From Candidatus Dojkabacteria bacterium (GTDB lineage: Bacteria; Patescibacteriota; Dojkabacteria; B142; JAFGFJ01), in contig JAFGFJ010000001.1 of NCBI GenBank assembly GCA_016931155.1, positions 7,050 to 71,049 of the forward strand: a stretch of 64,000 bases of DNA, written 5' to 3'. Of this stretch, positions 49,337 through 60,535 are shown one piece after another; positions within the stretch are counted from its first letter, which is position 1, and every line of letters starts with the position of its first letter. A program made the position numbers and the translations under genes. The notes under the pieces are model-generated. The model saw only the letters and a list, made by a program, of their open reading frames with translations, had not been told where the DNA came from and made no database searches.

Positions 49337-50092
49337 TTGATGGCAGACAATAATAAACCGAAAAAGAATCCTGTTGGAAAACAAAAGACAAAGAGTGAGG
49401 ATGTTGTTATAAGCGAGAATGCGAATATGAAAGAAATACCTGAGAATCCAACTGGAAAAACAATCAAACAAAAAGCTAAAGCCAGAGCTGAAGCCGAGAA
49501 AATGAGTAAAGAAGTAGAAAAAACAGAGACTGCTGAGAAAAAAGAAAAGAAGCCAAAAAAAACGAATCCAGATGCAAAATGGTACGTTTTAAATACATAT
49601 TCAGGACACGAAAAGAAGGTTGCACAGCTCATTGATCAACGAGTTAAAGCAAATGAACTTGAGAATAAAATTCTGGAAGTAATGGTTCCCACCCAGGAGA
49701 AAATCCTTGTAAGCGAAGGAAAGAAAAAGACACTTGAGGAAAAAATATTTCCCGGGTATGTCCTTGTTCAAATGGTAATGAATGATGACACATGGTATCT
49801 AATCCGAAATACCGAAGGGGTTACTGGGTTTGTTGGAACACAGCGAAAACCAACCCCCCTTACTGAAGAAGAGGTAAAAGGAATTCTGGCGTTCTCTGAG
49901 CTTCAGCAGCCATCATTTCAGGCATCATTTGCCGTTGACGACCCTGTTAAAGTTACTGACGGTCCATTCAAAGATTTTGTCGGTACTATTTCTGAAATAA
50001 ATGAAGATAAAGGACAGGTCAAAGTTCTTCTTTCAGTATTTGGAAGAGAAACTCCTGTTGTTCTAGACTTTCTACAAGTTTCTAAATTATAA
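49337..50092 (+). CDS. nusG: Transcription termination/antitermination factor NusG with a ~70-aa Lys/Glu-rich N-terminal extension
   Basis: NGN domain (KWYVLNTYSGHEKKVAQLI...FPGYVLVQM), KOW domain (VKVTDGPFKDFVGTISEINEDKGQVKVLLSVFGRETPV). Confidence 0.85.
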   Translation: MMADNNKPKKNPVGKQKTKSEDVVISENANMKEIPENPTGKTIKQKAKARAEAEKMSKEVEKTETAEKKEKKPKKTNPDAKWYVLNTYSGHEKKVAQLIDQRVKANELENKILEVMVPTQEKILVSEGKKKTLEEKIFPGYVLVQMVMNDDTWYLIRNTEGVTGFVGTQRKPTPLTEEEVKGILAFSELQQPSFQASFAVDDPVKVTDGPFKDFVGTISEINEDKGQVKVLLSVFGRETPVVLDFLQVSKL

Positions 50093-50101
50093 GATTATAA
50101 A

Positions 50102-50527
50102 ATGGCAAAACCAATAAAAGCAAAAATTAAATTACAGATAGAAGGAGGAAAAGCAGTCCCAGGGCAAAAGCTTGGCCCTACACTTGGACAGCACGGCGTT
50201 CCTATAGGTGACTTTGTAAACAGATTCAATGAAATGACAAAGGATAAAATGGGAACAATTATCCCATGTATTCTTACTGTTTATGAGGACAGAACCTTTT
50301 CCATTGAGCTTAAAAGCCCTCCTGCAGCCAACCTCATTGCAAAGGCAATAGGGTTGAAAAAAGGCTCAGATACACCAAACAAAAAGAAAGTCGGGAAAAT
50401 CTCAAGAAAACAACTTGAGGAAATTGCAAAAGTGAAAATGGCCGACCTGAATACCAACAATCTTGATTCTGCCACTAAGATTATTGAAGGAACAGCAGTC
50501 AGTATGGGACTCGAAATTAATGATTAA
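50102..50527 (+). CDS. rplK: 50S ribosomal protein L11
   Basis: L11 consensus (KIKLQIEGGKAVPGQKLGPTLGQHGV...); conserved position. Confidence 0.85.
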   Translation: MAKPIKAKIKLQIEGGKAVPGQKLGPTLGQHGVPIGDFVNRFNEMTKDKMGTIIPCILTVYEDRTFSIELKSPPAANLIAKAIGLKKGSDTPNKKKVGKISRKQLEEIAKVKMADLNTNNLDSATKIIEGTAVSMGLEIND

Positions 50528-50536
50528 AAAAATACC

Positions 50537-51226
50537 ATGAAAAGAGGTAAAAAATACAACGAAGTAACGAAAAGTTTTGATAAAACAAAGAAGTATTCTT
50601 TGGACGAAGCATCAAAACTTCTTCCAGGACTTTCAATAAGCAAATTTGAAGGATCTATCGAGATCCATCTCACAATTGACGCCAAAAGCAAGAAGAAGGA
50701 ATGTACTGTAAGAGGAAGTATCACTCTACCACATCAAACTGGTGCTTCAAAAAAGGTTGCTGTAATTGCCGAATCGAAAGATCAGAAGAAAGCAACAGAT
50801 GCTGGAGCGGACAAAGTCGGGCTTGATGACTTGATCAAGGAAATAGAAGGCGGAAAAATTGATTTTGACGTCTTAATTGCAACTCCAGAAGTCATGCCGA
50901 GAATTGCATCTCTTGGACGAGTACTCGGACCAAAAGGCCTTCTTCCAAATCCAAAAAACCAAACAGTAACTACCGATATTGAAAGAGTTGTGAAAAGTTA
51001 TAAAGCAGGAAAGCTGGATTTCAAAATGGATGAAGCGTTTGGGATTCACGCAAAAATCGGAAGAACTAGGATGACCCCTGAGCAGATAAAAGATAATTTA
51101 TCCTCATTTTTAAAAGCTGTTTTAAATGAGGCAAAAATCATTTCCCCTACCCCATTTAAGTCTGTAGTAGTGAGTCCAAGCATGGGACCAGGAGTGAAAA
51201 TAGAAACAAAGGAATTTACTTTATAG
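50537..51226 (+). CDS. rplA: 50S ribosomal protein L1
   Basis: L1 consensus (KFEGSIEIHLTIDAKSKKK..., VAVIAESKDQKKATDAGAD, GPKGLLPNPKN). Confidence 0.85.
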   Translation: MKRGKKYNEVTKSFDKTKKYSLDEASKLLPGLSISKFEGSIEIHLTIDAKSKKKECTVRGSITLPHQTGASKKVAVIAESKDQKKATDAGADKVGLDDLIKEIEGGKIDFDVLIATPEVMPRIASLGRVLGPKGLLPNPKNQTVTTDIERVVKSYKAGKLDFKMDEAFGIHAKIGRTRMTPEQIKDNLSSFLKAVLNEAKIISPTPFKSVVVSPSMGPGVKIETKEFTL

Positions 51227-51278
51227 AAGTAGTTTCAGTGAACTGGTTCAGAATACCTCAAAATATCCATTCAACTCA

Positions 51279-51893
51279 CTATGGTTCTATATCTAGTAGA
51301 TTTTCAAGAAGAGACAATTGCTCAGCCAGTGAACTACTATACTTTTCCTCAATTGATTTACTCAACACTTTACAAAGCTCCTCAGCCGATACTTCTCTGT
51401 AAAAACAGTATTCTTCTTTTACACGCATAGAAGGAATATATGCATAACTCATATTTCCTTTTTCATCCCTAAGTTCTAACATAGCTGAATTGTATTGAGG
51501 TTCCTGCCCAGTGAGGCGTGAGGCTAAATCAGTCAAGTAAAGCCTGGGATGCTCCCCAATATCTCTCCCACTCCCATTTGTATCTTCTCTTGTTATTTGT
51601 ATTTCGATTAGCCCAGGTAAACCATCATTGAGATACAAACTGATAAATGCACCTGGAAAAGAGGCAGAAACAGGTTTACATTTTTTAACCGTATGATTTC
51701 TGATACTTATTGCATTAATTTCTAATCCTCCAGAGACTTGATATGAATCTGGATCTAAATCTGGTTCTGAACTATTGTTTTCTCCGAAAAAGCAAGCACT
51801 TATCACCACAGGAGGTTTAAAATATTTTGTTGTTATACCAAAATCATCTATTGTTCTATAACCTTCTTTTGTGCCATTTATTTGATCCTTCAT
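51279..51893 (-). CDS. Hypothetical protein encoded antisense between rplA and rplJ
   Basis: 204-aa ORF with protein-like composition. It occupies the position where an rplJ leader/promoter normally lies. No motif was identified. Confidence 0.4.
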   Translation of the reverse strand: MKDQINGTKEGYRTIDDFGITTKYFKPPVVISACFFGENNSSEPDLDPDSYQVSGGLEINAISIRNHTVKKCKPVSASFPGAFISLYLNDGLPGLIEIQITREDTNGSGRDIGEHPRLYLTDLASRLTGQEPQYNSAMLELRDEKGNMSYAYIPSMRVKEEYCFYREVSAEELCKVLSKSIEEKYSSSLAEQLSLLENLLDIEP

Positions 51894-52172
51894 AATATCT
51901 CGCTAATAATTTTTCAAAATAATAGAAAAATAAACAACCATATTTTTAATTACCAGTGGGTAAAAATTCCTTTGTCACTGAGTGTGGAGAGGATGTTATA
52001 AAAAACAACACCAATTTGTCAACTGTTTTTGACTTTTCCCTCCTCTTGTATTACAATCATCCAGTCAAAGACAACGAGTGCAATTTGAGTCGGATAGATT
52101 CTGCTCAAGAGCTTAATATCTCGTCGAGACCAAGCAAAATTAAACTCTGAATTCGTTCTTAGTTTTTTATAG

Positions 52173-52199
52173 CCGTCTCGAGACGGTTTTTTCTTTTTT
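52173..52199 (+). terminator. Intrinsic-terminator-like hairpin (CCGTCTCGAGACGG) plus T-tract, 28 nt upstream of the rplJ start. Candidate L10-leader attenuator.
   Basis: Seen in sequence: agccgtctcgagacggttttttctttttt. Confidence 0.55.
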
Positions 52200-52227
52200 A
52201 AAGAACCAATTTTTTTAGCGAAATAAA

Positions 52228-52752
52228 ATGGCAAAAACAAAAGATGAGAAAAAACAGAGCGTGGCAGAATATAGAGACAGACTCAGGTTATCAAAGGCAG
52301 TATATTTGATCGAGCCGAAAGGTATAACACCAAATGAAGCAACAGAGCTTAAAAAAGCTTTGTTTAATCTTAATTCGCAGTTTAATGTTGTGAAAAATTC
52401 TCTTTTCAAACTTGCTTTGAAAGACGAAGGGATGGATCTAGATGAGGATCTTCTTGATGGACCAAACGCAGCAGTTTTTACCTCGGAACAAAGTTTAAGC
52501 GAAGCGGCAAAAATTATTTCTAAATTTATAAAAGATTCCGAAAAAGGAGAAATAAAAGGTGGGATATTGGACGGGAAATTTGTATCAAAAGATCAGGTCG
52601 AGGCTCTTGCCAATCTGCCTTCAAGAGAGCAGTTGCTCGCACAGGTAGTTGGAACAATGTACGCACCTGTTTCCGGTTTTGTAAATGTTCTTGCCGGAAA
52701 TATTAGAAGTATTCTTTATGTGCTCAATGCTGTAAAAGAGCAGAAAGCATAA
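52228..52752 (+). CDS. rplJ: 50S ribosomal protein L10
   Basis: L10 consensus and position upstream of rplL. Confidence 0.8.
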   Translation: MAKTKDEKKQSVAEYRDRLRLSKAVYLIEPKGITPNEATELKKALFNLNSQFNVVKNSLFKLALKDEGMDLDEDLLDGPNAAVFTSEQSLSEAAKIISKFIKDSEKGEIKGGILDGKFVSKDQVEALANLPSREQLLAQVVGTMYAPVSGFVNVLAGNIRSILYVLNAVKEQKA

Positions 52753-52798
52753 TTTGTCCCAATAAACCGGACAAAATTTTATTTATTATTTAATTAAA

Positions 52799-53272
52799 AT
52801 GTCAGACGAAGCAAAAAAGACCGAAGCCGCAGAAGCAAAGGCTGAAGCTAAAGCCGAGGCAAAGGAAGAAAAGAAAGACACAGTTGAGCTGAAAGGTGAT
52901 CAAAAAAAGATTGCCGAGATGATCGAAAAGATGTCTGTTCTTGAGCTTTCCGAGCTTGTAAAAGCTCTTGAAGATAAGTTTGGTGTTTCTGCAGCAGCAC
53001 CCGCAGCTATGATGGCTATGCCTGCAGCAGGAGGAGAGACAGAGAAGCCAGAAGAAGAAAAGACAATCTTTGATATTATTCTTCAAGAAGCTGGAAGCAA
53101 TATGATTGCAGTAATAAAAGCTGTCAAGAACGCAACCGGACTTGGACTTAAGGAGGCAAAGGATCTTGTAGAAGGAGCACCTAAACCTGTAAAGGAAGGA
53201 GCACCTAAGGAAGAAGCTGAAGCTCTAAAGAAAGAATTGGAAGAGGCTGGGGCAAAGGTAGAATTGAAATAA
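52799..53272 (+). CDS. rplL: 50S ribosomal protein L7/L12
   Basis: N-terminal dimerisation helix, Ala/Glu-rich hinge, and C-terminal domain ([21 protein letters not shown]...[10 protein letters not shown]). Confidence 0.9.
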
Positions 53273-53302
53273 GCCTACCAAGCAATAAGCTAAAAAACAG
53301 AA

Positions 53303-53336
53303 CCCTGATGTACAAAGCGTCAGGGTTTTTTGTTTC
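53303..53336 (+). terminator. Rho-independent terminator downstream of rplL
   Basis: aaccctgatgtacaaagcgtcagggttttttgtttctt: a 7-bp GC-containing stem plus a U-tract. Confidence 0.65.
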
Positions 53337-53388
53337 TTCTCTTGACTCCAAAATTAAACTATAATCTTTGAGAAATTAAATTACATCT

Positions 53389-54093
53389 ATGAAAGAAATC
53401 ACGTTGTTCCTTTTAGAAAACGGTGTTAGAGAGGAAACCTTGATACTGCTTTTGATGCTTCCGATTATAAGTACAGTTATAGGATTTGGCAGGCATTTCG
53501 TCGGGATAAGAACAATTGGAATATACACCGCAATCGTCCTGACTTATGCTTTCTATCTACTGGGCATCACTGAGACTAACGGACCAAGCAATATTCTTCT
53601 GGGAATGAGACTCGGAATCGGCATAACGGTTGCAGTATATGCCATTGCTTCCATTGGACAGCTAATGACAAAAAAAATCAGGCTTCATTATCAACCAAAG
53701 CTTGCAATTATTATCTCAATAATTGCAATACTTGCATTTATTGCTCTACTTCTTTTTGCAAAATTTGGACAAGTGACTATTACAAGAGTAAATGCTATAG
53801 CAATTATTTTAATAGTAACAACATCTGAACAGTTTATAAGCAGTTTTGTTAAGAAAAATTTTTCCTCTGCGGTGCTTTTAAGCTTTGAGACAATGATAGT
53901 TTCTCTGATTTGTTATTCTCTGATTTCATGGCCAAGCCTCCAAAATTTCATACTTACCTACCCTATCGTTGCTACTCTGGCAATCCCTTTCAATCTGATT
54001 ATAGGCAAATTCACAGGACTTAGACTTAAAGAACACCTGCGCTTCAGAGATTTACTAAATAATAATGAGCCTGGCAACGATTCTCAACAATAG
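53389..54093 (+). CDS. Seven-TM membrane protein, first gene of the ATP-grasp island. Resembles the 7TM module that accompanies RimK-related ligase systems.
   Basis: Seven hydrophobic helices are predicted by eye and there is no soluble domain. Its stop overlaps the start of the next gene by 29 nt. Confidence 0.55.
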   Translation: MKEITLFLLENGVREETLILLLMLPIISTVIGFGRHFVGIRTIGIYTAIVLTYAFYLLGITETNGPSNILLGMRLGIGITVAVYAIASIGQLMTKKIRLHYQPKLAIIISIIAILAFIALLLFAKFGQVTITRVNAIAIILIVTTSEQFISSFVKKNFSSAVLLSFETMIVSLICYSLISWPSLQNFILTYPIVATLAIPFNLIIGKFTGLRLKEHLRFRDLLNNNEPGNDSQQ

Positions 54094-55516
54094 AAAAAAA
54101 ATTCTCGGTCTAAACGAGAGGAACCTTAAGTATATCCGACCTTTCAATAAAAAAAAGGCTAAATTGATTGCGGATAATAAGCTCCTTACCAAGAAATATC
54201 TGGAGAAGGCAGGAATCCCTATTCCGAAACTTCTGGCAGTCATTAAAAATGAAGAAGAGCTTGAAAATTTCGATTGGGATTCACTGCCAAAAAGCTTTGT
54301 TGTAAAGCCTGTTATGGGACATGAAGGAGGCGGAATAGAAATTTTTTACAACAAAGATAACAAGGGAAGATGGATAAGGGCGGACAAAAGTAAAGTAAAT
54401 CTGTCGGAGCTTAAGGCATACATCTTTGACATTCTGGATGGGAAATACTCATTGCACAATACACCAGATATGGCCTTTTTCGAAGAAAGAGTAAAACTAC
54501 ATAAAAGATTTAGATACCACACCTACAAAGGAGCCCCGGATGTTCGCATAAATATCTTCAATAATATTCCTATCATGGCATATATCAGGTTTCCAACAAG
54601 AGAATCCCGGGGAAAAGCGAATATGGCAATGGGAGCAATTGGTACAGGAATAGATATGGCTAGCGGAGTTACCACCACTTCAGTTTACGGAAAAGGGAGT
54701 GGAGGAAGAGGAACACCGATTGAATGTGTACCTGGTACGAAAATCAGGCTTGCAGGACTTAAGATTCCTTATTGGAATAAAATGCTGCGTTATGCCATTG
54801 AAGTTCAAAAAATTACAAAACTGGGTTATGCCGCAGTCGACTTTCTTTTGGACAGGGATCTTGGACCACTTGTAGTTGAAATAAATGCCCGCCCGGGTCT
54901 TTCCGGGCAGATTGCAAATCAAGATGGACTTGCCTGGAGGCTCAAAAAAGTCGCAGGACTCAAAATAAAGACCGTAGAGAAAGGTGTGAGACTGGCAAAA
55001 GATCTTTTTGGAGGCGAAATTGAAGAGGAAATCGAAAGTATCTCGGGAAAAGAAGTAATAGGGATTTATGAGACCGTCATACTCATAGGAAAAGAAGGTA
55101 AAGAGCTCGAGAGAAAAGCAAAGATAGATACAGGAGCTGATAGTACTTCTATTGATATAGAACTGATAAAACAGCTTGGATATGAAGATCTGGTGAAAGA
55201 GATTGAGTCTAAAGCTATTCCAGATAATATGAATAGAGACGAAGGACTTGAGCTTGCCAGAAAACTTGAGGCAGATCTTTTGCCGAAATATCCAGAAATT
55301 GCTTATCTGGCATATATAAAGTCCAGTCATGGGACAAGTGTAAGACCGAGTATAAAGATTTCTTTAAGGCTGGGAGATACACAGTTTGAAACTACGGCAA
55401 CAATTTATGATAGAAGTAAATTAACCTACCCCGTAATCGTAGGGAGAAAGTCTCTTTCAAGGTTCTTGGTCGATCCAACAAAAACTCGACCCTTCAGCGG
55501 AGAACAAAAAAAATAA
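54065..55516 (+). CDS. ATP-grasp ligase (RimK-related / sugar-transfer-associated type) fused to a C-terminal retropepsin-like aspartic peptidase domain (DTGA)
   Basis: ATP-grasp motifs FVVKPVMGHEGGGIEIF, DVRINIF and AAVDFLLDRDLGPLVVEINARPGLSG. The C-terminal ~150 aa carry KIDTGADSTSIDIEL (a clan AA D-T-G-A active-site signature) and ...VIVGRKSL. Confidence 0.65.
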   Translation: MSLATILNNRKKILGLNERNLKYIRPFNKKKAKLIADNKLLTKKYLEKAGIPIPKLLAVIKNEEELENFDWDSLPKSFVVKPVMGHEGGGIEIFYNKDNKGRWIRADKSKVNLSELKAYIFDILDGKYSLHNTPDMAFFEERVKLHKRFRYHTYKGAPDVRINIFNNIPIMAYIRFPTRESRGKANMAMGAIGTGIDMASGVTTTSVYGKGSGGRGTPIECVPGTKIRLAGLKIPYWNKMLRYAIEVQKITKLGYAAVDFLLDRDLGPLVVEINARPGLSGQIANQDGLAWRLKKVAGLKIKTVEKGVRLAKDLFGGEIEEEIESISGKEVIGIYETVILIGKEGKELERKAKIDTGADSTSIDIELIKQLGYEDLVKEIESKAIPDNMNRDEGLELARKLEADLLPKYPEIAYLAYIKSSHGTSVRPSIKISLRLGDTQFETTATIYDRSKLTYPVIVGRKSLSRFLVDPTKTRPFSGEQKK

Positions 55517-55534: not shown

Positions 55535-56443
55535 ATGGTTTCGAATTTATTGTTTATTACATCAACCCTAAAATACAATACATATACCGACAGACAGTTT
55601 TTGACTGAGGCAAAAAATCTGGGGTTAAATGTACTTGCCCTCAACCCAAACGCATTTTCTTATTCAGTGAATAGATCAAATAATTTCATAATATGGAACA
55701 AGGATAAAGAGTTTCATGTACCTCTAGATTCAATAGTCTACAGAAAGTCTATAAGTAAAGCTGGAGTTGGTTTAGAAGATATTCTAAAAAGGTATGGAGC
55801 AACTGGATTTGAAGAAAATCATACTAAGAAAAAAATCAAAGGTATGGAGAAATTTAGTGACTATGTAGCATATGCGGAGGATAATGTAAAAATTCCAAAC
55901 TCATATCTATTAACTAATAAGAATCAAACCACTTATGCAATAGATTATTTTGATGGAAAGTTTCCATTAATAGTGAAAAAAATATCTGGTACCCACGGTA
56001 TTGGAATATTTGTTGCAGAAAGCAAAAGGGCACTTTTACCAATTGTGGAATATCTATTGAATGAAGGAGAACAATCTCCAATAATCATTCAAGAATTCAT
56101 TGAAGCTTCAGAGGGGAAAGACATAAGAATTATTGTTTTGGATGGAAAAGTAGTCAGTGCAGTATTAAGAGATAATACGGGCAAAGACTTTAGATCAAAT
56201 ATTTATCAAGGAGCAAGTCCCAAGCTTATTGAACTCACCCCAGAACAGGAAAAGATAGCTATAAATGCCGCAAAGGCAGTAGGGTTAGAATTTGCCGGTG
56301 TAGATGTGCTTTATGCCAATGAAGGATACGCAATTACTGAGGTCAACTCGCCATGTGATTTTAGTTTTGTTGAACAGACAACAAAGGTTCCCGTAACAAA
56401 AATGCTGATCGAGTATTTAATTAACAAGGCTTCAAATAAATAA
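55535..56443 (+). CDS. rimK: RimK-family alpha-L-glutamate ligase-like ATP-grasp enzyme
   Basis: PLIVKKISGTHGIGIFV, DIRIIVLDGKVV and RSNIYQGASPKLIELTPEQEKIAINAAKAVGLEFAGVDVLYANEGYAITEVNSPCDF are collinear with the RimK C-terminal signature. Confidence 0.7.
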   Translation: MVSNLLFITSTLKYNTYTDRQFLTEAKNLGLNVLALNPNAFSYSVNRSNNFIIWNKDKEFHVPLDSIVYRKSISKAGVGLEDILKRYGATGFEENHTKKKIKGMEKFSDYVAYAEDNVKIPNSYLLTNKNQTTYAIDYFDGKFPLIVKKISGTHGIGIFVAESKRALLPIVEYLLNEGEQSPIIIQEFIEASEGKDIRIIVLDGKVVSAVLRDNTGKDFRSNIYQGASPKLIELTPEQEKIAINAAKAVGLEFAGVDVLYANEGYAITEVNSPCDFSFVEQTTKVPVTKMLIEYLINKASNK

Positions 56444-56466: not shown

Positions 56467-57417
56467 ATGAAAATACTAGTGCTTTCTACAAGAAAATCTT
56501 CCTCATTCTCTAGCAAGCAAAATGAACTGCTTTATAGAAAATGGGCCGTATACGGTCAGTCCAAAGGCCATGTTATTGCTCTCTCAGGAATAGACTATTT
56601 TGATGAAGTTTCTTTTTCCAAAGCATTCAGTTGGGACAAAAACGGGAACAAAATAGAAGAAACAAATTTTGCTCCTGATGTTATTTATTTAAAAGTTGTG
56701 AGCAGTAAAATATTTGAGAATTACGGTAAACTAAGACTAATCACTTCAAAATTTCCTGCCGTAAATTCTTTGGATTTCGTAATAAGTCTCGAAAGCAAGG
56801 TAAATCAGAGCTTAATGTTTAAAGAATATTTGCCCGAGACTTTTATAGTTACCAATTCCCACCAAATTGAAGAGATATTAAATTCAAATGACAAAGACTA
56901 TTTGTTAAAACCTGATTTATCTACTGGAGGACAAAACATATTGTTCCTCAGAAAGAACAAATACCCTAGAGACATTAGCCATGCTTTTCTAGTCCAGGAA
57001 ATGATAGACAATACCAAAGGTACCCCAGGCATAACAGATGGAAGGCACGACATGCGCTTTATGTTTGTGGGTGGAGAGCTGAAATACGCATTGCTTCGAA
57101 AACCAAAGGGAGATTCATTTTTTGCAAATGCTGCAAAAGGGGGCTCAACTCAGATTCTTGATGCAAAAAAGATAGATAAAGACATCATGAAACTACCGCT
57201 TGAAGTAGCAAAAATAATTCTTTCAAAATGGGGAAAAGATAATATTTTTACAGTGGACGTGATTGTAGGTAAAGGCGAAAAGGTTTACCTTATGGAGGTA
57301 AATACGTTCCCTGGAATTTCCTATATTGACGAATATATGCAATTTACCATGTTCGACTCTTACTTTAATCTATTTTCAAAAATTATTGATTCATATGCAA
57401 ATAAAACCTCAAAGTGA
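56467..57417 (+). CDS. ATP-grasp domain protein (RimK/YheCD-like), third ligase paralog
   Basis: YLLKPDLSTGGQNILFL, FLVQEMID, HDMRFMFVGGELKYALLR, KVYLMEVNTFPGIS (the E-x-N Mg-binding motif). Confidence 0.6.
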   Translation: MKILVLSTRKSSSFSSKQNELLYRKWAVYGQSKGHVIALSGIDYFDEVSFSKAFSWDKNGNKIEETNFAPDVIYLKVVSSKIFENYGKLRLITSKFPAVNSLDFVISLESKVNQSLMFKEYLPETFIVTNSHQIEEILNSNDKDYLLKPDLSTGGQNILFLRKNKYPRDISHAFLVQEMIDNTKGTPGITDGRHDMRFMFVGGELKYALLRKPKGDSFFANAAKGGSTQILDAKKIDKDIMKLPLEVAKIILSKWGKDNIFTVDVIVGKGEKVYLMEVNTFPGISYIDEYMQFTMFDSYFNLFSKIIDSYANKTSK

Positions 57418-58396
57418 AAAATTCAATGCTGATCTTTATCTTTCTGCAGCAGAAGAGCTTGGACTAAAATCTGAAGTCCTAAATGAAAGAGTCGGCTTCT
57501 GCAGAATTTATACAGACAATAATGAGCTCTACATAAAGAACACAAGTCTCAGCTGTAATGATATGGTTGCAATGAGCTTTGCTATGGACAAAAATCTCTC
57601 CCTTGATATTCTAGGAAAAGCAGGAATACCTGTACCAAAACAAGAACTTTTCACAGCAGATGAAGAAGCTGAACCGGGAGACCCTATCAATAGAACTCCA
57701 ATACTCGAGTATGCCAAATCCCATTTCCCACTCGTGGTCAAACCACTGAAGGGGGCAGGAGGAAAAGGAGTTTTCATTGCAGTAAATTCACTTGATGAAG
57801 TAAATTTAGCACTCAATGAAATAGAAAGGCTAAAATACCAGGATGTACTTATTGAAAATTATGTCAAAGGTAAAGACTATCGCATACTAGTTGCCAACGG
57901 GAAAGTAGTTGATATTTTGGAGAGGATACAGGCTTTTGTAATAGGAAATGGGAAAAAGACAGTAAGCGAGTTGATAAAAGAAAAAAATAAAATTCGAGAA
58001 GCAATGAGAGTAAATCCTGTCAAAGTTGATGACAAACTACATAACCATTTGTCGAAACAGTCTAGGTCGGTATCAAATATACCGGCAGAAGGAGAAAAAG
58101 TAGTACTCAGACCAAATTGTAACTTTTCAGAAGGGGGAGAAACACACAGAATAGATATACAAATTATAAAGCAGGACGACATAGATATGTTTCTTAAGGT
58201 CGCAAAAGTAAGCCGGCTAGGACTTTGTGCAATAGATTATATTACCCCAGATATCACTAAATCTTATAAAGAGGTCCAGACAATAATAAATGAAATCAAC
58301 GGTAGTCCAAGCATGGACATACATTATTACGCAGATACGAAGGAAGATCTTCAGGTGATAAAGGATATTCTTATTTCTATTTTAAAGGTTAGCTGA
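57395..58396 (+). CDS. Standalone cyanophycin-synthetase-like ATP-grasp domain protein. The likely start is MQIKPQ at 57395; the annotated ORF starts at 57326 and overlaps the previous gene.
   Basis: Collinear with the CphA ATP-grasp domain: ILGKAGIPVPKQE, VVKPLKGAGGKGVFIAV, GKDYRILVANGKVVDILERIQAFVIGNGKKTVSELI, AEGEKVVLRPNCNFSEGGE, GLCAIDYI. There is no Mur-ligase-like C-terminal domain. Confidence 0.65.
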   Translation: MQIKPQSEKFNADLYLSAAEELGLKSEVLNERVGFCRIYTDNNELYIKNTSLSCNDMVAMSFAMDKNLSLDILGKAGIPVPKQELFTADEEAEPGDPINRTPILEYAKSHFPLVVKPLKGAGGKGVFIAVNSLDEVNLALNEIERLKYQDVLIENYVKGKDYRILVANGKVVDILERIQAFVIGNGKKTVSELIKEKNKIREAMRVNPVKVDDKLHNHLSKQSRSVSNIPAEGEKVVLRPNCNFSEGGETHRIDIQIIKQDDIDMFLKVAKVSRLGLCAIDYITPDITKSYKEVQTIINEINGSPSMDIHYYADTKEDLQVIKDILISILKVS

Positions 58397-60535
58397 TAAA
58401 TGCTCTGTAAGTGTTTTTAATATCTTAACTCTAACATCCTCTAAAATAATTTCACTTGGTCTCATCTCCGGTAGAACTGCTTTGGACCTATCAAAAAGTC
58501 CAACCTTGTTAAGCTCGGCAAGGGTTTGCAAACTAACTCCACCGATAGCCAATAAATCAGACATTCCTCTATTCGACAACTCTTCAGCAACAAGATTCTG
58601 TTCAATATATGCAAGGGGCTTACTATTGGTAGTATAAGAACTCCAGTTCCCAAATATCCCGGCTCCAGTAAATATTCTTCTAGTATGTTTTACTGCCTCT
58701 TTTACCCCTTCCATTTTTTTCTCTTCGGAAGGAGAAGCTATCCCTTCCATATAATTATCATAGAAGGCCTTTGCACAAGCTTTAAAACTTCTGCCTTTCG
58801 TTCTTTCTTGCACAGCCCTAAAAAGACCTTTACTAACTTTTGCCTCTTGCCCTAGGTATCTTTTCTTAGCTTCTCTTTCCCATGCTATTGCCCCTGCCTC
58901 AGCATTGACTGAACTCCTATCGGTTCCAATATTTTCTGTAATTGCTAAACCAATCCTTGCTTTATTCTCGTGTTGCAGGATATGCATAGTTTCATGATCA
59001 GAAATTGCTATTACTCCTGAAGGTGCAGTTGAGCCAAGTTTCCTAATCTCTCCAGAAGGAATAAAAATTGTCCCTTTTCTGCTATTAACAGAAATTATTG
59101 TTACCCTAGGACTAATAATAACCTGCCACTTGTTATCATCTGCTCTTCCATTCCTATCTGAACTATAGACTGAAGTTGCATCAGTTTCAGGGTCAATTTC
59201 AATAGTTTCATTGGAATCAGTGTTATATTGAGTTTGGGTACTGCTTAAAAGTTCATATCTTCTCAAAACCTTCTTCCAAAGTCCCTCTATTTCCGATGCA
59301 TTCATTTGTATATTTACAATTATTTCTCTCAATTTCGCTGCTGACTCATCACCATATCTCCGCACAAGACTCAGCAGTGACCCGTTCCCCAAAACTTCGG
59401 TCGGAATTAATTCTTTCAAGACAAAAACTTCCTTGGTTAGGTTAGACAACCCCTCAGGAGAAAGAGTATTAGAGAGTTCAGAGTATAAACTACTTGAGAA
59501 CTCACTAGTGTTTTCTCCATCACGGTGAGCAATAGCCAATAGAGTTTGATTCAACGGAGGAATTTCTGTTACCTGACTTGCAGATTTTTTCCTCTTAGAT
59601 AATTCTACAGCTTCATTACTTATTGGCCCATAATTCCCACTGGAAAGTGCCTCTCCTGCTCCTTCTTTAAATCTGTCTAACCGGGCAAGTTTTCTAAGAG
59701 TGGGTGTTTGAGTTTTTGTTTCATCTATGCCTATACCAAAAAAACCTTCTTTCATTACATCAAACAACTCTTGATCTCTCCACCCAGAAGCTTGTTGCTG
59801 TCTTTCAAAATTGATAAATAGTGGGTAAAGATTTGCTATCATTTCATTAGTCCTAAGTGCATGAATGTCTAACAAGGCAAGTTTCGCTTTTGATAAATCC
59901 GAACCATCTTTCTTCAATTCCGCTCTGTATATTTTGTGATAGCGCTTAAGAGCACGGAGCTTTTCAACTTTTTCTGCCAGATTCAATGGATTCTTTATTA
60001 CAACAATTTTGGTTGGATTTCTAATTGATCTTACATCTGAGAAACCACGCCTACGAAAGGCTTCAGTAAACTGATCACCCATGTATTTAGAACTGGCACC
60101 TGAGATTTTGTCTACAACTTGCGTTTCTACCTTTGAATAATCGAAAGAACTCAAAAAAGAAATTATCGCTTCCCGGTCATTAACTTCAGGATCCAATCCT
60201 AAATTATCAACTAAAAGTTTCCTTCCTTCATCTTTCAGAAAATAATCTACATAAAGTTCCACTAAATTTATCTTTATCTTCCATATATGCTCAAGTCCTT
60301 CTGCTGTTACTATCTCCACAACCTCACCCTGATCATTTCTTCTTTCAATCTGAAGTGTTTCTGACCTGGTTAAATTATCTTCAAAACTGAGTGCTTCTGC
60401 TCTTTGATCCGCTGACAACTGTATTTCAGGAGGTCCTGCAATAGCTTCCACATAGGCGCCTATCTTAACCCCTGCTCTTTCCGGAAAAGGGTACCTGGAA
60501 GATTCTGCGATGCCTGATTCTCTTTCCTGTGTCAT
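58382..60535 (-). CDS. Large (717 aa) putative zinc metallopeptidase with an HExxH motif, convergent on the ATP-grasp island and co-oriented with the upstream mreB paralog
   Basis: The motif ISDHETMHILQHEN (H-E-x-x-H) sits in the C-terminal third, followed by Glu-containing segments and a large alpha-helical N-terminal region. No other family could be assigned by eye. Confidence 0.45.
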   Translation of the reverse strand: MTQERESGIAESSRYPFPERAGVKIGAYVEAIAGPPEIQLSADQRAEALSFEDNLTRSETLQIERRNDQGEVVEIVTAEGLEHIWKIKINLVELYVDYFLKDEGRKLLVDNLGLDPEVNDREAIISFLSSFDYSKVETQVVDKISGASSKYMGDQFTEAFRRRGFSDVRSIRNPTKIVVIKNPLNLAEKVEKLRALKRYHKIYRAELKKDGSDLSKAKLALLDIHALRTNEMIANLYPLFINFERQQQASGWRDQELFDVMKEGFFGIGIDETKTQTPTLRKLARLDRFKEGAGEALSSGNYGPISNEAVELSKRKKSASQVTEIPPLNQTLLAIAHRDGENTSEFSSSLYSELSNTLSPEGLSNLTKEVFVLKELIPTEVLGNGSLLSLVRRYGDESAAKLREIIVNIQMNASEIEGLWKKVLRRYELLSSTQTQYNTDSNETIEIDPETDATSVYSSDRNGRADDNKWQVIISPRVTIISVNSRKGTIFIPSGEIRKLGSTAPSGVIAISDHETMHILQHENKARIGLAITENIGTDRSSVNAEAGAIAWEREAKKRYLGQEAKVSKGLFRAVQERTKGRSFKACAKAFYDNYMEGIASPSEEKKMEGVKEAVKHTRRIFTGAGIFGNWSSYTTNSKPLAYIEQNLVAEELSNRGMSDLLAIGGVSLQTLAELNKVGLFDRSKAVLPEMRPSEIILEDVRVKILKTLTEHLSANL

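Follow-up and report, generated by a model that had tools for sequence, protein, structure and literature searches.

A single open reading frame (ORF) of Candidatus Dojkabacteria bacterium encodes one polypeptide chain that combines a peptide ligase with an aspartic protease of the retroviral type. The ORF was confirmed at positions 54065..55516 on the plus strand of the window, i.e. the whole 64,000-nucleotide stretch of contig JAFGFJ010000001.1 that was analyzed here. It starts with ATG and specifies a protein of 483 amino acids (aa), subsequently designated the fusion protein, in which an RloC-type ATP-grasp ligase domain is followed by an RloA/RimB-type retropepsin domain. Presence of both domains on one polypeptide had been proposed from the DNA letters alone (subsequently called the sequence-only reading), and it is borne out by matches to the Pfam families PF14397 and PF05618, both above their cut-offs, with which structure comparison by Foldseek agrees. 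RimB is a dimeric retropepsin-like endopeptidase that removes the poly-glutamate tails added by RimK to ribosomal protein S6 (PMC11957791), and RloA proteins are secreted paralogues encoded together with RloB (transglutaminase plus seven-transmembrane [7TM] domain) and RloC (ATP-grasp) (PMC12239564). With a probability of roughly 0.6, we propose that the ligase of the fusion protein would add acidic chains, likely of glutamate, in the cytoplasm and that the retropepsin domain would trim them as a dimer, with a 7TM protein encoded immediately upstream as partner.

The start codon at position 54065 is considered correct because 40 aligned homologues have their N-termini at the position of this ATG. 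On the opposite strand, the region 54065..55516 contains stop codons throughout. The fusion protein is 100% identical to a Candidatus Dojkabacteria protein at NCBI, which is annotated as ‘ATP-dependent zinc protease’. Homologues were sampled as the best 120 protein clusters, which comprise 453–492 aa and share 56–75% identity with the fusion protein, and invariance of residues was counted in the 40-sequence alignment of homologues. Gene neighbourhoods were assessed at 84 loci carrying relatives of the fusion gene, 80 of which derive from different species-level genomes. Pfam matches were judged by gathering thresholds and NCBIfam matches by the cut-offs of the models, the latter being listed at E up to 0.01.

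The ligase domain comprises residues 19–297 (54119..54955, plus strand). It matched PF14397 (ATPgrasp_ST) at E 2.7e-57 and with a score of 194.5 bits, the cut-off being 31.4. The top NCBIfam model was TIGR02291 (RloC-like, alpha-L-glutamate ligase-like), which aligned over model positions 9–294 of 317 (E 9e-72). Its score of 241.7 bits falls short of the cut-off of 314.2, leaving the protein outside the RloC-type equivalog group, and TIGR00768 reached 55.7 bits, which is under its cut-off of 143.4. Residues K81, G85–G90 forming a Gly-rich loop, E140, E141, D259, E272, R276 and G278 are invariant in the alignment, and N274 is nearly so. We take these residues to be those expected of the nucleotide/Mg2+ site of ATP-grasp enzymes. 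When the full-length AlphaFold2 model was submitted to Foldseek, ArgX/LysX and RimK were retrieved as best matches and Ddl was found as well, with E-values ranging from 4e-10 to 1e-8. ArgX/LysX and RimK are ligases that extend C-terminal Glu residues or act on Glu carboxylates. A search of the PDB with the ligase-domain sequence yielded a weak match to Ddl only and, judging by this search, the structure of an RloC-type ligase appears not to have been solved yet.

The retropepsin-like aspartic peptidase domain encompasses residues 330–475 (55052..55489, plus strand), as delimited by PF05618, the AlphaFold2 model and Foldseek. PF05618, formerly named ‘Zn_protease’ and now ‘RimB-like’, matched residues 332–474 at E 2.3e-9, with 37.7 bits against a gathering score of 27. 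Among the NCBIfam matches of this domain, RloA3 was best (E 1.4e-10), followed by RloA2, RloA and RimB. All of them remained under the equivalog cut-offs: the RloA models NF052262, NF052263 and NF052264 scored 41.1, 29.3 and 29.3 bits, the cut-offs being 210, 250 and 280, and the RimB model NF052261 scored 22.3 bits, the cut-off being 200. The sequence-only reading had named PF05618, PF14397 and TIGR02281 for profile searches; the two Pfam families were matched, but TIGR02281 was absent from the NCBIfam matches of the fusion protein. By these profile matches, the domain belongs to the RimB/RloA branch of PF05618 rather than to TIGR02281.

Structure prediction gave the same picture. Modeled alone, the domain reached a mean predicted local distance difference test score (pLDDT) of 91.5. 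Foldseek matched this model to RloA (9g58, E 5.9e-7), RloA2 and 2pma and then to HIV-1 protease and Ddi1, all with a probability of 1.00 and with template modeling scores (TM-scores), normalized by target length, of 0.54–0.67. The retropepsin fold expected for the C-terminal region was thus recovered for residues ~330–475. Comparison of a profile of the domain with the PDB retrieved RloA 9g58 (E 1.1e-10), RloA2 9g59, Lpg0085 2pma and, more weakly, Ddi1. Searching a large protein database with the domain alone returned just 16 short proteins or fragments.

The D-T-G-A motif, on which the sequence-only reading had relied, is located in the active-site loop K353-I-D355-T-G-A358 (55121..55138, plus strand) as seen from the translation and the homologue alignment, D355 being the catalytic aspartate. 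Its conservation in orthologues, likewise expected, was found in all 120 homologues, of which 117 carry DTGA and three DSGA, and a D[TS]GA motif is present at 80 of the 84 genomic loci. Further motifs on the plus strand are an SSHG turn of the predicted flap hairpin together with R427 (55322..55345), D449-R450 (55409..55414), which belongs to a ‘DRS’ motif that aligns with 9g58 and 9g59, and VIVGRK at residues 457–462 (55433..55450), which represents the hydrophobic-hydrophobic-Gly-Arg motif of retropepsins and in which R461 is nearly invariant. Altogether, K353, D355, G357, A358, S420, H422, G423, R427, R450 and G460 are invariant in this domain. In the alignments with 9g58 and 9g59, K353, R427 and R450 correspond to K46, R114 and R137 of RloA (the K-x-D, ‘ARP’ and ‘DRS’ positions), and the spacing of 23 residues between R427 and R450 equals that between R114 and R137. 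These three RloA residues coordinate poly-Glu. Activity in vitro was affected most strongly by the substitutions R114A and R137A, neither of which allowed rescue of the mutant in vivo (PMC12239564). Retention of all catalytic and substrate-binding residues is the signature of purifying selection on activity, and the domain is regarded as a putative active protease. Between the active-site strand and the predicted flap hairpin, a two-helix insert is found (55157–55279), and the distance from the catalytic Asp to the Gly-Arg motif amounts to ~105 residues in the fusion protein. A sister group of fused proteins of 434–459 aa lacks the insert and exhibits a spacing of ~69 residues, which is near that of canonical retropepsins.

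The fusion protein lacks TM-like or signal-like hydrophobic segments, the maximal hydropathy over 19 residues being 1.07, and its retropepsin domain contains zero cysteines. Because there is neither a signal or TM segment nor a cysteine pair in the protease domain, the protein should be cytoplasmic, like RimB and unlike periplasmic RloA. In the full-length model (pLDDT 83.7) both domains are predicted with confidence, and pLDDT drops below 50 at residues 318–327 between them. This region coincides with a predicted disordered, Glu-rich linker, whose core GGEIEEEIE comprises residues 316–324 (55010..55036, plus strand) according to alignment and translation. G316, G317 and I319 are invariant in the 40 sequences and E318, E320 and E324 are conserved in at least 90% of them. 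The extended motif LFGGEIEEEIExISGK is conserved as strongly as the catalytic motifs. It is retained in relatives without DTGA (e.g. P0137, P0139 and P0158). The linker could act as a pseudo-substrate, as a docking motif or as a processing site, and its predicted disorder would allow room for dimerization. The idea that it is simply the tail in which unfused RloC-like ligases naturally end was rejected, as the C-termini of the latter vary.

The gene upstream of the fusion gene encodes a 7TM membrane protein of 234 aa (53389..54093, plus strand), which matched PF14402 (7TM_transglut) at E 2.2e-13 and possesses multiple hydrophobic TM-like segments. The last 29 nucleotides (nt) of this gene lie within the fusion gene. 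The RloB model NF052267 was matched by this protein only at positions 312–507 of 508, and no Transglut_core match was obtained with Pfam or NCBIfam, indicating that the transglutaminase half of RloB is missing. A homologue of the 7TM gene is located immediately upstream of the fusion gene at 81 of the 84 loci, where it ends within ~360 nt, and usually within 100 nt, of the fusion match; of the three loci that deviate, two are truncated by the end of a contig. In four relatives, the 7TM gene also overlaps or closely abuts the start of the fusion gene.

These findings suggest the following mechanism. The N-terminal RloC-type domain would consume ATP while attaching amino acids to a carboxylate acceptor, L-glutamate in alpha linkage being the likely choice, and its product would be an acidic oligopeptide or protein tail. 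Pairing of the retropepsin domains of two chains would create a two-aspartate active site, which may cut inside poly-Glu chains and thereby limit or recycle the product of the ligase. The 7TM RloB-like protein from the overlapping gene would be the membrane partner of the enzyme, and the RimK-family and other ATP-grasp ligases as well as a MATCAP-like metallopeptidase encoded in the Dojkabacteria genome are probable co-workers. The data presented here establish which domains are present, their folds, the conservation of catalytic and substrate-binding residues, the gene linkage and the distribution; from these we infer glutamate specificity, dimer formation and a coupling of writer and eraser. 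Coupled synthesis and trimming, which would provide the length control considered by the sequence-only reading, would fit with what is known for RimK/RimB (PMC11957791) and RloC/RloA (PMC12239564).

Several observations weigh against this proposal. The scores with the RloC, RloA and RimB equivalog models are far under the cut-offs, so specificity could differ. Pfam itself calls PF14397 ‘sugar-transfer associated’, a name that hints at a connection with polysaccharides of the cell surface. TM-scores of the C-terminal domain to solved structures are only 0.47–0.59, and the two-helix insert, which comprises 40 residues (365–405), is absent from the solved RloA structures. When acceptor candidates with an acidic C-terminal tail or a Glu run were sought in the window, a single EEEE run was detected, and this is located in an unrelated ORF. 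Finally, the coupling and length control proposed for the fusion protein are predictions from its homologues.

The fusion is common across bacteria of the candidate phyla radiation (CPR). Scanning one genome per GTDB species revealed a relative in at least 587 genomes; the best 80 of these were inspected and all encode full-length fusions, complete chromosomes included. The hosts of these 80 are Dojkabacteria, Moranbacteria/Moraniibacteriota, Paceibacterota, Minisyncoccota and other Patescibacteria, although some of the submitter labels look unreliable, and cluster look-ups added Jacksonbacteria and Kerfeldbacteria. In Dojkabacteria (loci L001–L027; positions 49337–53272 of the window), the module of 7TM gene and fusion gene always follows directly after nusG-rplK-rplA-rplJ-rplL. 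The place after the rplJ-rplL block is usually occupied by rpoBC. This neighbourhood is specific to Dojkabacteria; in Moranbacteria the neighbours are different (RuvC, YebC). At four related loci in Dojkabacteria, rplJ-rplL are succeeded by the 7TM gene, the fusion gene and the extra ligases, after which come mreB on the opposite strand and then an ORF of ~480 aa that matched PEGA in two of the four cases. The extra ATP-grasp ligases number 0–4 per cluster and belong to different subfamilies, cyanophycin-synthetase-like ones included, and the cluster of one relative contains a Mur-ligase-domain protein. Two side observations concern the ribosomal block in the window: L7/L12 (52799–53272) comprises 157 aa with an N-terminal extension of ~35 residues rich in Ala, Glu and Lys, as compared to 133–139 aa in relatives, and a 204-aa ORF without Pfam or NCBIfam match (51279–51893, minus strand) is located between rplA and rplJ, representing an unusual break in this block.

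In more distant relatives, the catalytic motif is frequently lost. DTGA is missing at four of the 84 loci (losses were noted at L033, L065, L072 and L075), in 22 of 45 proteins of 400–529 aa at the level of 50% clusters and in 43 of 46 distant relatives of 740–830 aa, three of which were sampled and found to be ATPgrasp_ST-X-MATCAP proteins. Replacements at this site include DTSRR and DPGK. Many relatives of 780–820 aa combine ATPgrasp_ST and the same linker with a shortened middle domain and MATCAP (PF08014), and in P0144 a ligase, a retropepsin with DTGA and MATCAP are combined in a single polypeptide. Further architectures include a second ATP-grasp domain (P0164), YdjC (P0141), or a 7TM or transglutaminase-7TM region fused to the ligase (P0255, P0267). 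As judged from these sequences, the domain looks like a pseudo-protease that persists in proteins with a fused metallopeptidase.

Downstream of the fusion gene, three further ATP-grasp ligase genes follow on the plus strand. The first of them begins 18 nt downstream and encodes a RimK-family alpha-L-glutamate ligase of 302 aa (55535..56443; PF08443 at E 8.1e-43; TIGR00768 at 163.1 bits against a cut-off of 143.4). The next protein, the third ATP-grasp ligase of the cluster, comprises 316 aa and is YheCD/glutathione-synthetase-like (56467..57417; PF14398 at E 1.6e-11; PF02955 at E 4e-10). The fourth ligase resembles the ATP-grasp part of cyanophycin synthetase (57395..58396; TIGR02068 at E 3e-55, model positions 168–467). 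Its start is uncertain: translation may begin at TTG 57326, which would create an overlap of 92 nt with the previous gene, or at the in-frame ATG 57395, which is more likely.

Convergently to this ligase cluster, the minus strand encodes a protein of 717 aa (58382..60535), whose C-terminal half resembles a divergent MATCAP/DUF1704-like HExxH metallopeptidase. This ORF had no Pfam match even at E up to 10 and matched only itself in a search of 5.8 billion proteins. However, hhalign aligned its residues 469–685 with the MATCAP domains that are fused to ATPgrasp_ST (probability 96.5%, E 8.7e-10), placing HETMH (58982–58996) on HExxH and AEAGA on EGLA. In addition, a homologue of 28% identity adjoins the ligase cluster in a Moranbacteria genome (L042, 5457–7346). 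A plain hidden Markov model built from 45 fused MATCAP domains had no match in the window, and detection needed the profile-profile comparison and the Moranbacteria homologue. The protein is probably a divergent gluzincin peptidase of the system, i.e. a candidate second, metallo-type ‘eraser’.

With regard to transcription, a terminator-like hairpin of 13 bp with a T-run is located right after rplL (53299..53329, plus strand), and a perfect TATAAT box without properly spaced -35 box is found 23 nt upstream of the 7TM start codon (53360–53365, plus strand). Both are consensus matches only, and scanning of the region revealed terminator and promoter sites no more frequently than in shuffled sequence. 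The arrangement suggests that the 7TM gene and the fusion gene may be transcribed as a separate unit.

Other readings of the fusion protein were weighed against these data. The ligase might produce something other than poly-alpha-glutamate, for instance a different polymer of amino acids or a peptide linked to the envelope or to peptidoglycan, and the retropepsin would then process this product or a specific protein. The natural substrate of RloC-type ligases is not established (PMC12239564), and the sub-threshold equivalog scores, the variable set of extra ligases from different subfamilies, the Mur-ligase-domain protein of one relative, the proximity, in Dojkabacteria, of mreB and of an envelope protein with a PEGA domain, and the invariant SSHG motif that is particular to the flap would all be compatible with this view. 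Nonetheless, we consider it unlikely, given that the three Glu-side-chain-binding residues of RloA are invariant in the fusion family, that the nearest ligase structures (ArgX/LysX and RimK) all act on Glu carboxylates and that a bona fide RimK-family Glu ligase is encoded immediately downstream. Viral retropepsins are known to excise themselves from polyproteins, and in a similar manner the retropepsin dimer might cut the linker GGEIEEEIE to release protease and ligase from each other. Strong conservation, predicted disorder and exposure of the linker speak for such autoprocessing, and its acidic character fits with RloA and RimB, both of which prefer sequences rich in Glu. However, the linker contains at most three contiguous Glu residues and is broken by Ile, whereas RimB needs ~6 contiguous Glu residues (PMC11957791) and RloA cuts runs of at least 8 (PMC12239564), and interrupting residues abolish or slow cleavage by these enzymes (PMC11957791, PMC12239564). 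Moreover, the linker is equally conserved in relatives lacking DTGA, so its conservation is independent of an active protease, and RimBK, a natural hybrid of RimB and RimK, was purified as hybrid protein with protease activity. Autoprocessing is therefore regarded as improbable.

Even less credit is given to a purely non-proteolytic role, in which the retropepsin-like domain would solely serve the ligase as dimerization or substrate-holding module. The losses of the catalytic motif in distant relatives demonstrate that the fold can be kept without catalysis, and RimB itself has a non-proteolytic function, as it stimulates RimK (PMC11957791), but the fusion protein and its 120 closest homologues have retained the catalytic and substrate-binding residues altogether. 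The chance that the fusion merely reflects an assembly error or a frameshift joining adjacent genes is negligible. The sequence stems from a metagenome-assembled genome, but the same ORF of ~470 aa recurs without interruption in 120 protein clusters, which originate from numerous independent samples, and in the best 80 species-level genomes scanned, and an artefact was rejected on these grounds. Trimming of acidic chains by the retropepsin of the same polypeptide that would synthesize them is the reading we prefer.

Among the described systems, RloABC of P. aeruginosa and P. fluorescens (Lormand et al., mBio 2025, PMC12239564) is similar in that PF05618, PF14402 and PF14397/TIGR02291 are linked, DTGA and the poly-Glu-binding K/R/R residues are kept, and the RloA structures are the best structural matches. 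The Rlo system, described in 2025, has effects in Pseudomonas on osmotic tolerance, on the formation of biofilms and on sensitivity to antibiotics, and a triple protease mutant of P. aeruginosa is rescued when rloB or rloC is lost (PMC12239564). There are also clear differences. In the fusion protein, the protease is attached to the C-terminus of the ligase, should reside in the cytoplasm, lacks a signal peptide and disulfide cysteines and contains the 40-residue helical insert. The adjoining 7TM protein lacks the periplasmic inactive transglutaminase domain of RloB, the proteins of the fusion locus score under all Rlo equivalog cut-offs, and the host belongs to the CPR and not to the gammaproteobacteria.

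A fusion of ligase and retropepsin as such is already known from RimBK of Desulfotalea psychrophila (DP2392), which was purified as a hybrid and cuts polyglutamylated RpsF (Little et al., JBC 2025, PMC11957791). RimBK is present in 12% of the genomes that carry rim genes, chiefly among Flavobacteriales and Rhodobacterales (PMC11957791). The view of the sequence-only reading that the two activities are usually encoded by separate genes is thus correct for the usual state, but a fusion is not without precedent. Like the fusion protein, RimBK is a single cytoplasmic chain combining a PF05618 retropepsin with an ATP-grasp glutamate ligase. However, RimB is N-terminal and RimK C-terminal in RimBK, whereas ligase precedes protease in the fusion protein; the ligase of RimBK is RimK (PF08443/TIGR00768) and that of the fusion protein is of RloC type; and a 7TM partner has not been reported for RimBK. 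Because the domain order is reversed, the ligase is RloC-type rather than RimK and the 7TM partner is kept, the Dojkabacteria protein is a fusion that is independent of RimBK and lies within the Rlo branch. Full-text literature searches using Pfam/TIGRFAM identifiers and MATCAP/DUF1704 in combination with ATP-grasp did not retrieve a description of this fusion, which may be listed in the amidoligase survey by Iyer et al. 2009.

RimA-RimB-RimK of Pseudomonas follows a comparable writer-eraser logic: the ATP-grasp enzyme attaches tails of alpha-Glu, which are taken off again by a dimeric retropepsin endopeptidase that also modulates the ligase. The RimK-family gene directly after the retropepsin-coding region in the window recalls the rimB-rimK order. 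In contrast, the Pseudomonas proteins are separate and their target, ribosomal protein S6, is known. The Dojkabacteria module is placed just after rplJ-rplL, a placement that is not kept in Moranbacteria. HIV-1 protease and the RVP domain of Ddi1 share with the fusion protein the fold and the DTGA and Gly-Arg motifs, and a homodimer with one Asp per chain is expected here as well. However, sequence identity to these proteins is just 12–17%, and the domain of the fusion protein differs by a predicted basic Glu-binding channel, the helical insert and the attached ligase. The multidomain ATPgrasp_ST-(retropepsin-like)-MATCAP proteins of uncultured bacteria, for which we know of no name yet, share the ligase domain, the LFGGE-Glu-rich linker and a homologous middle domain, and a MATCAP-like protein is also encoded in the window, albeit separately. 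Unlike the fusion protein, most of these proteins of ~780–820 aa are devoid of DTGA and carry a fused gluzincin peptidase (PF08014) instead.

The covalent fusion of RloC- and RloA-type domains provides independent comparative evidence that ligase and protease act on the same molecule, and the compact two-gene module offers itself for reconstitution. Public annotations such as ‘ATP-dependent zinc protease’ and ‘ribosomal protein S6--L-glutamate ligase’ are misleading for such proteins. In a broader and admittedly speculative picture, which we regard as doubtful, the 7TM protein, the ligase-retropepsin, the extra ATP-grasp enzymes and the MATCAP-like peptidase would form a membrane-associated machine of Patescibacteria that writes, trims and perhaps exports an acidic peptide or C-terminal tail. 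It would be a prokaryotic counterpart of TTL/TTLL-MATCAP, with the fused form displaying the core logic of the Rlo system and the linker acting as pseudo-substrate or autoprocessing switch. Related proteins show that the retropepsin domain can be lost or replaced by a MATCAP-type metallopeptidase. The fusion is found throughout the best 80 species-level Patescibacteria genomes scanned and is accompanied by a trimmed 7TM partner, a pattern suggesting that in the Rlo system the secreted protease and the transglutaminase domain may have been added later, in proteobacteria.

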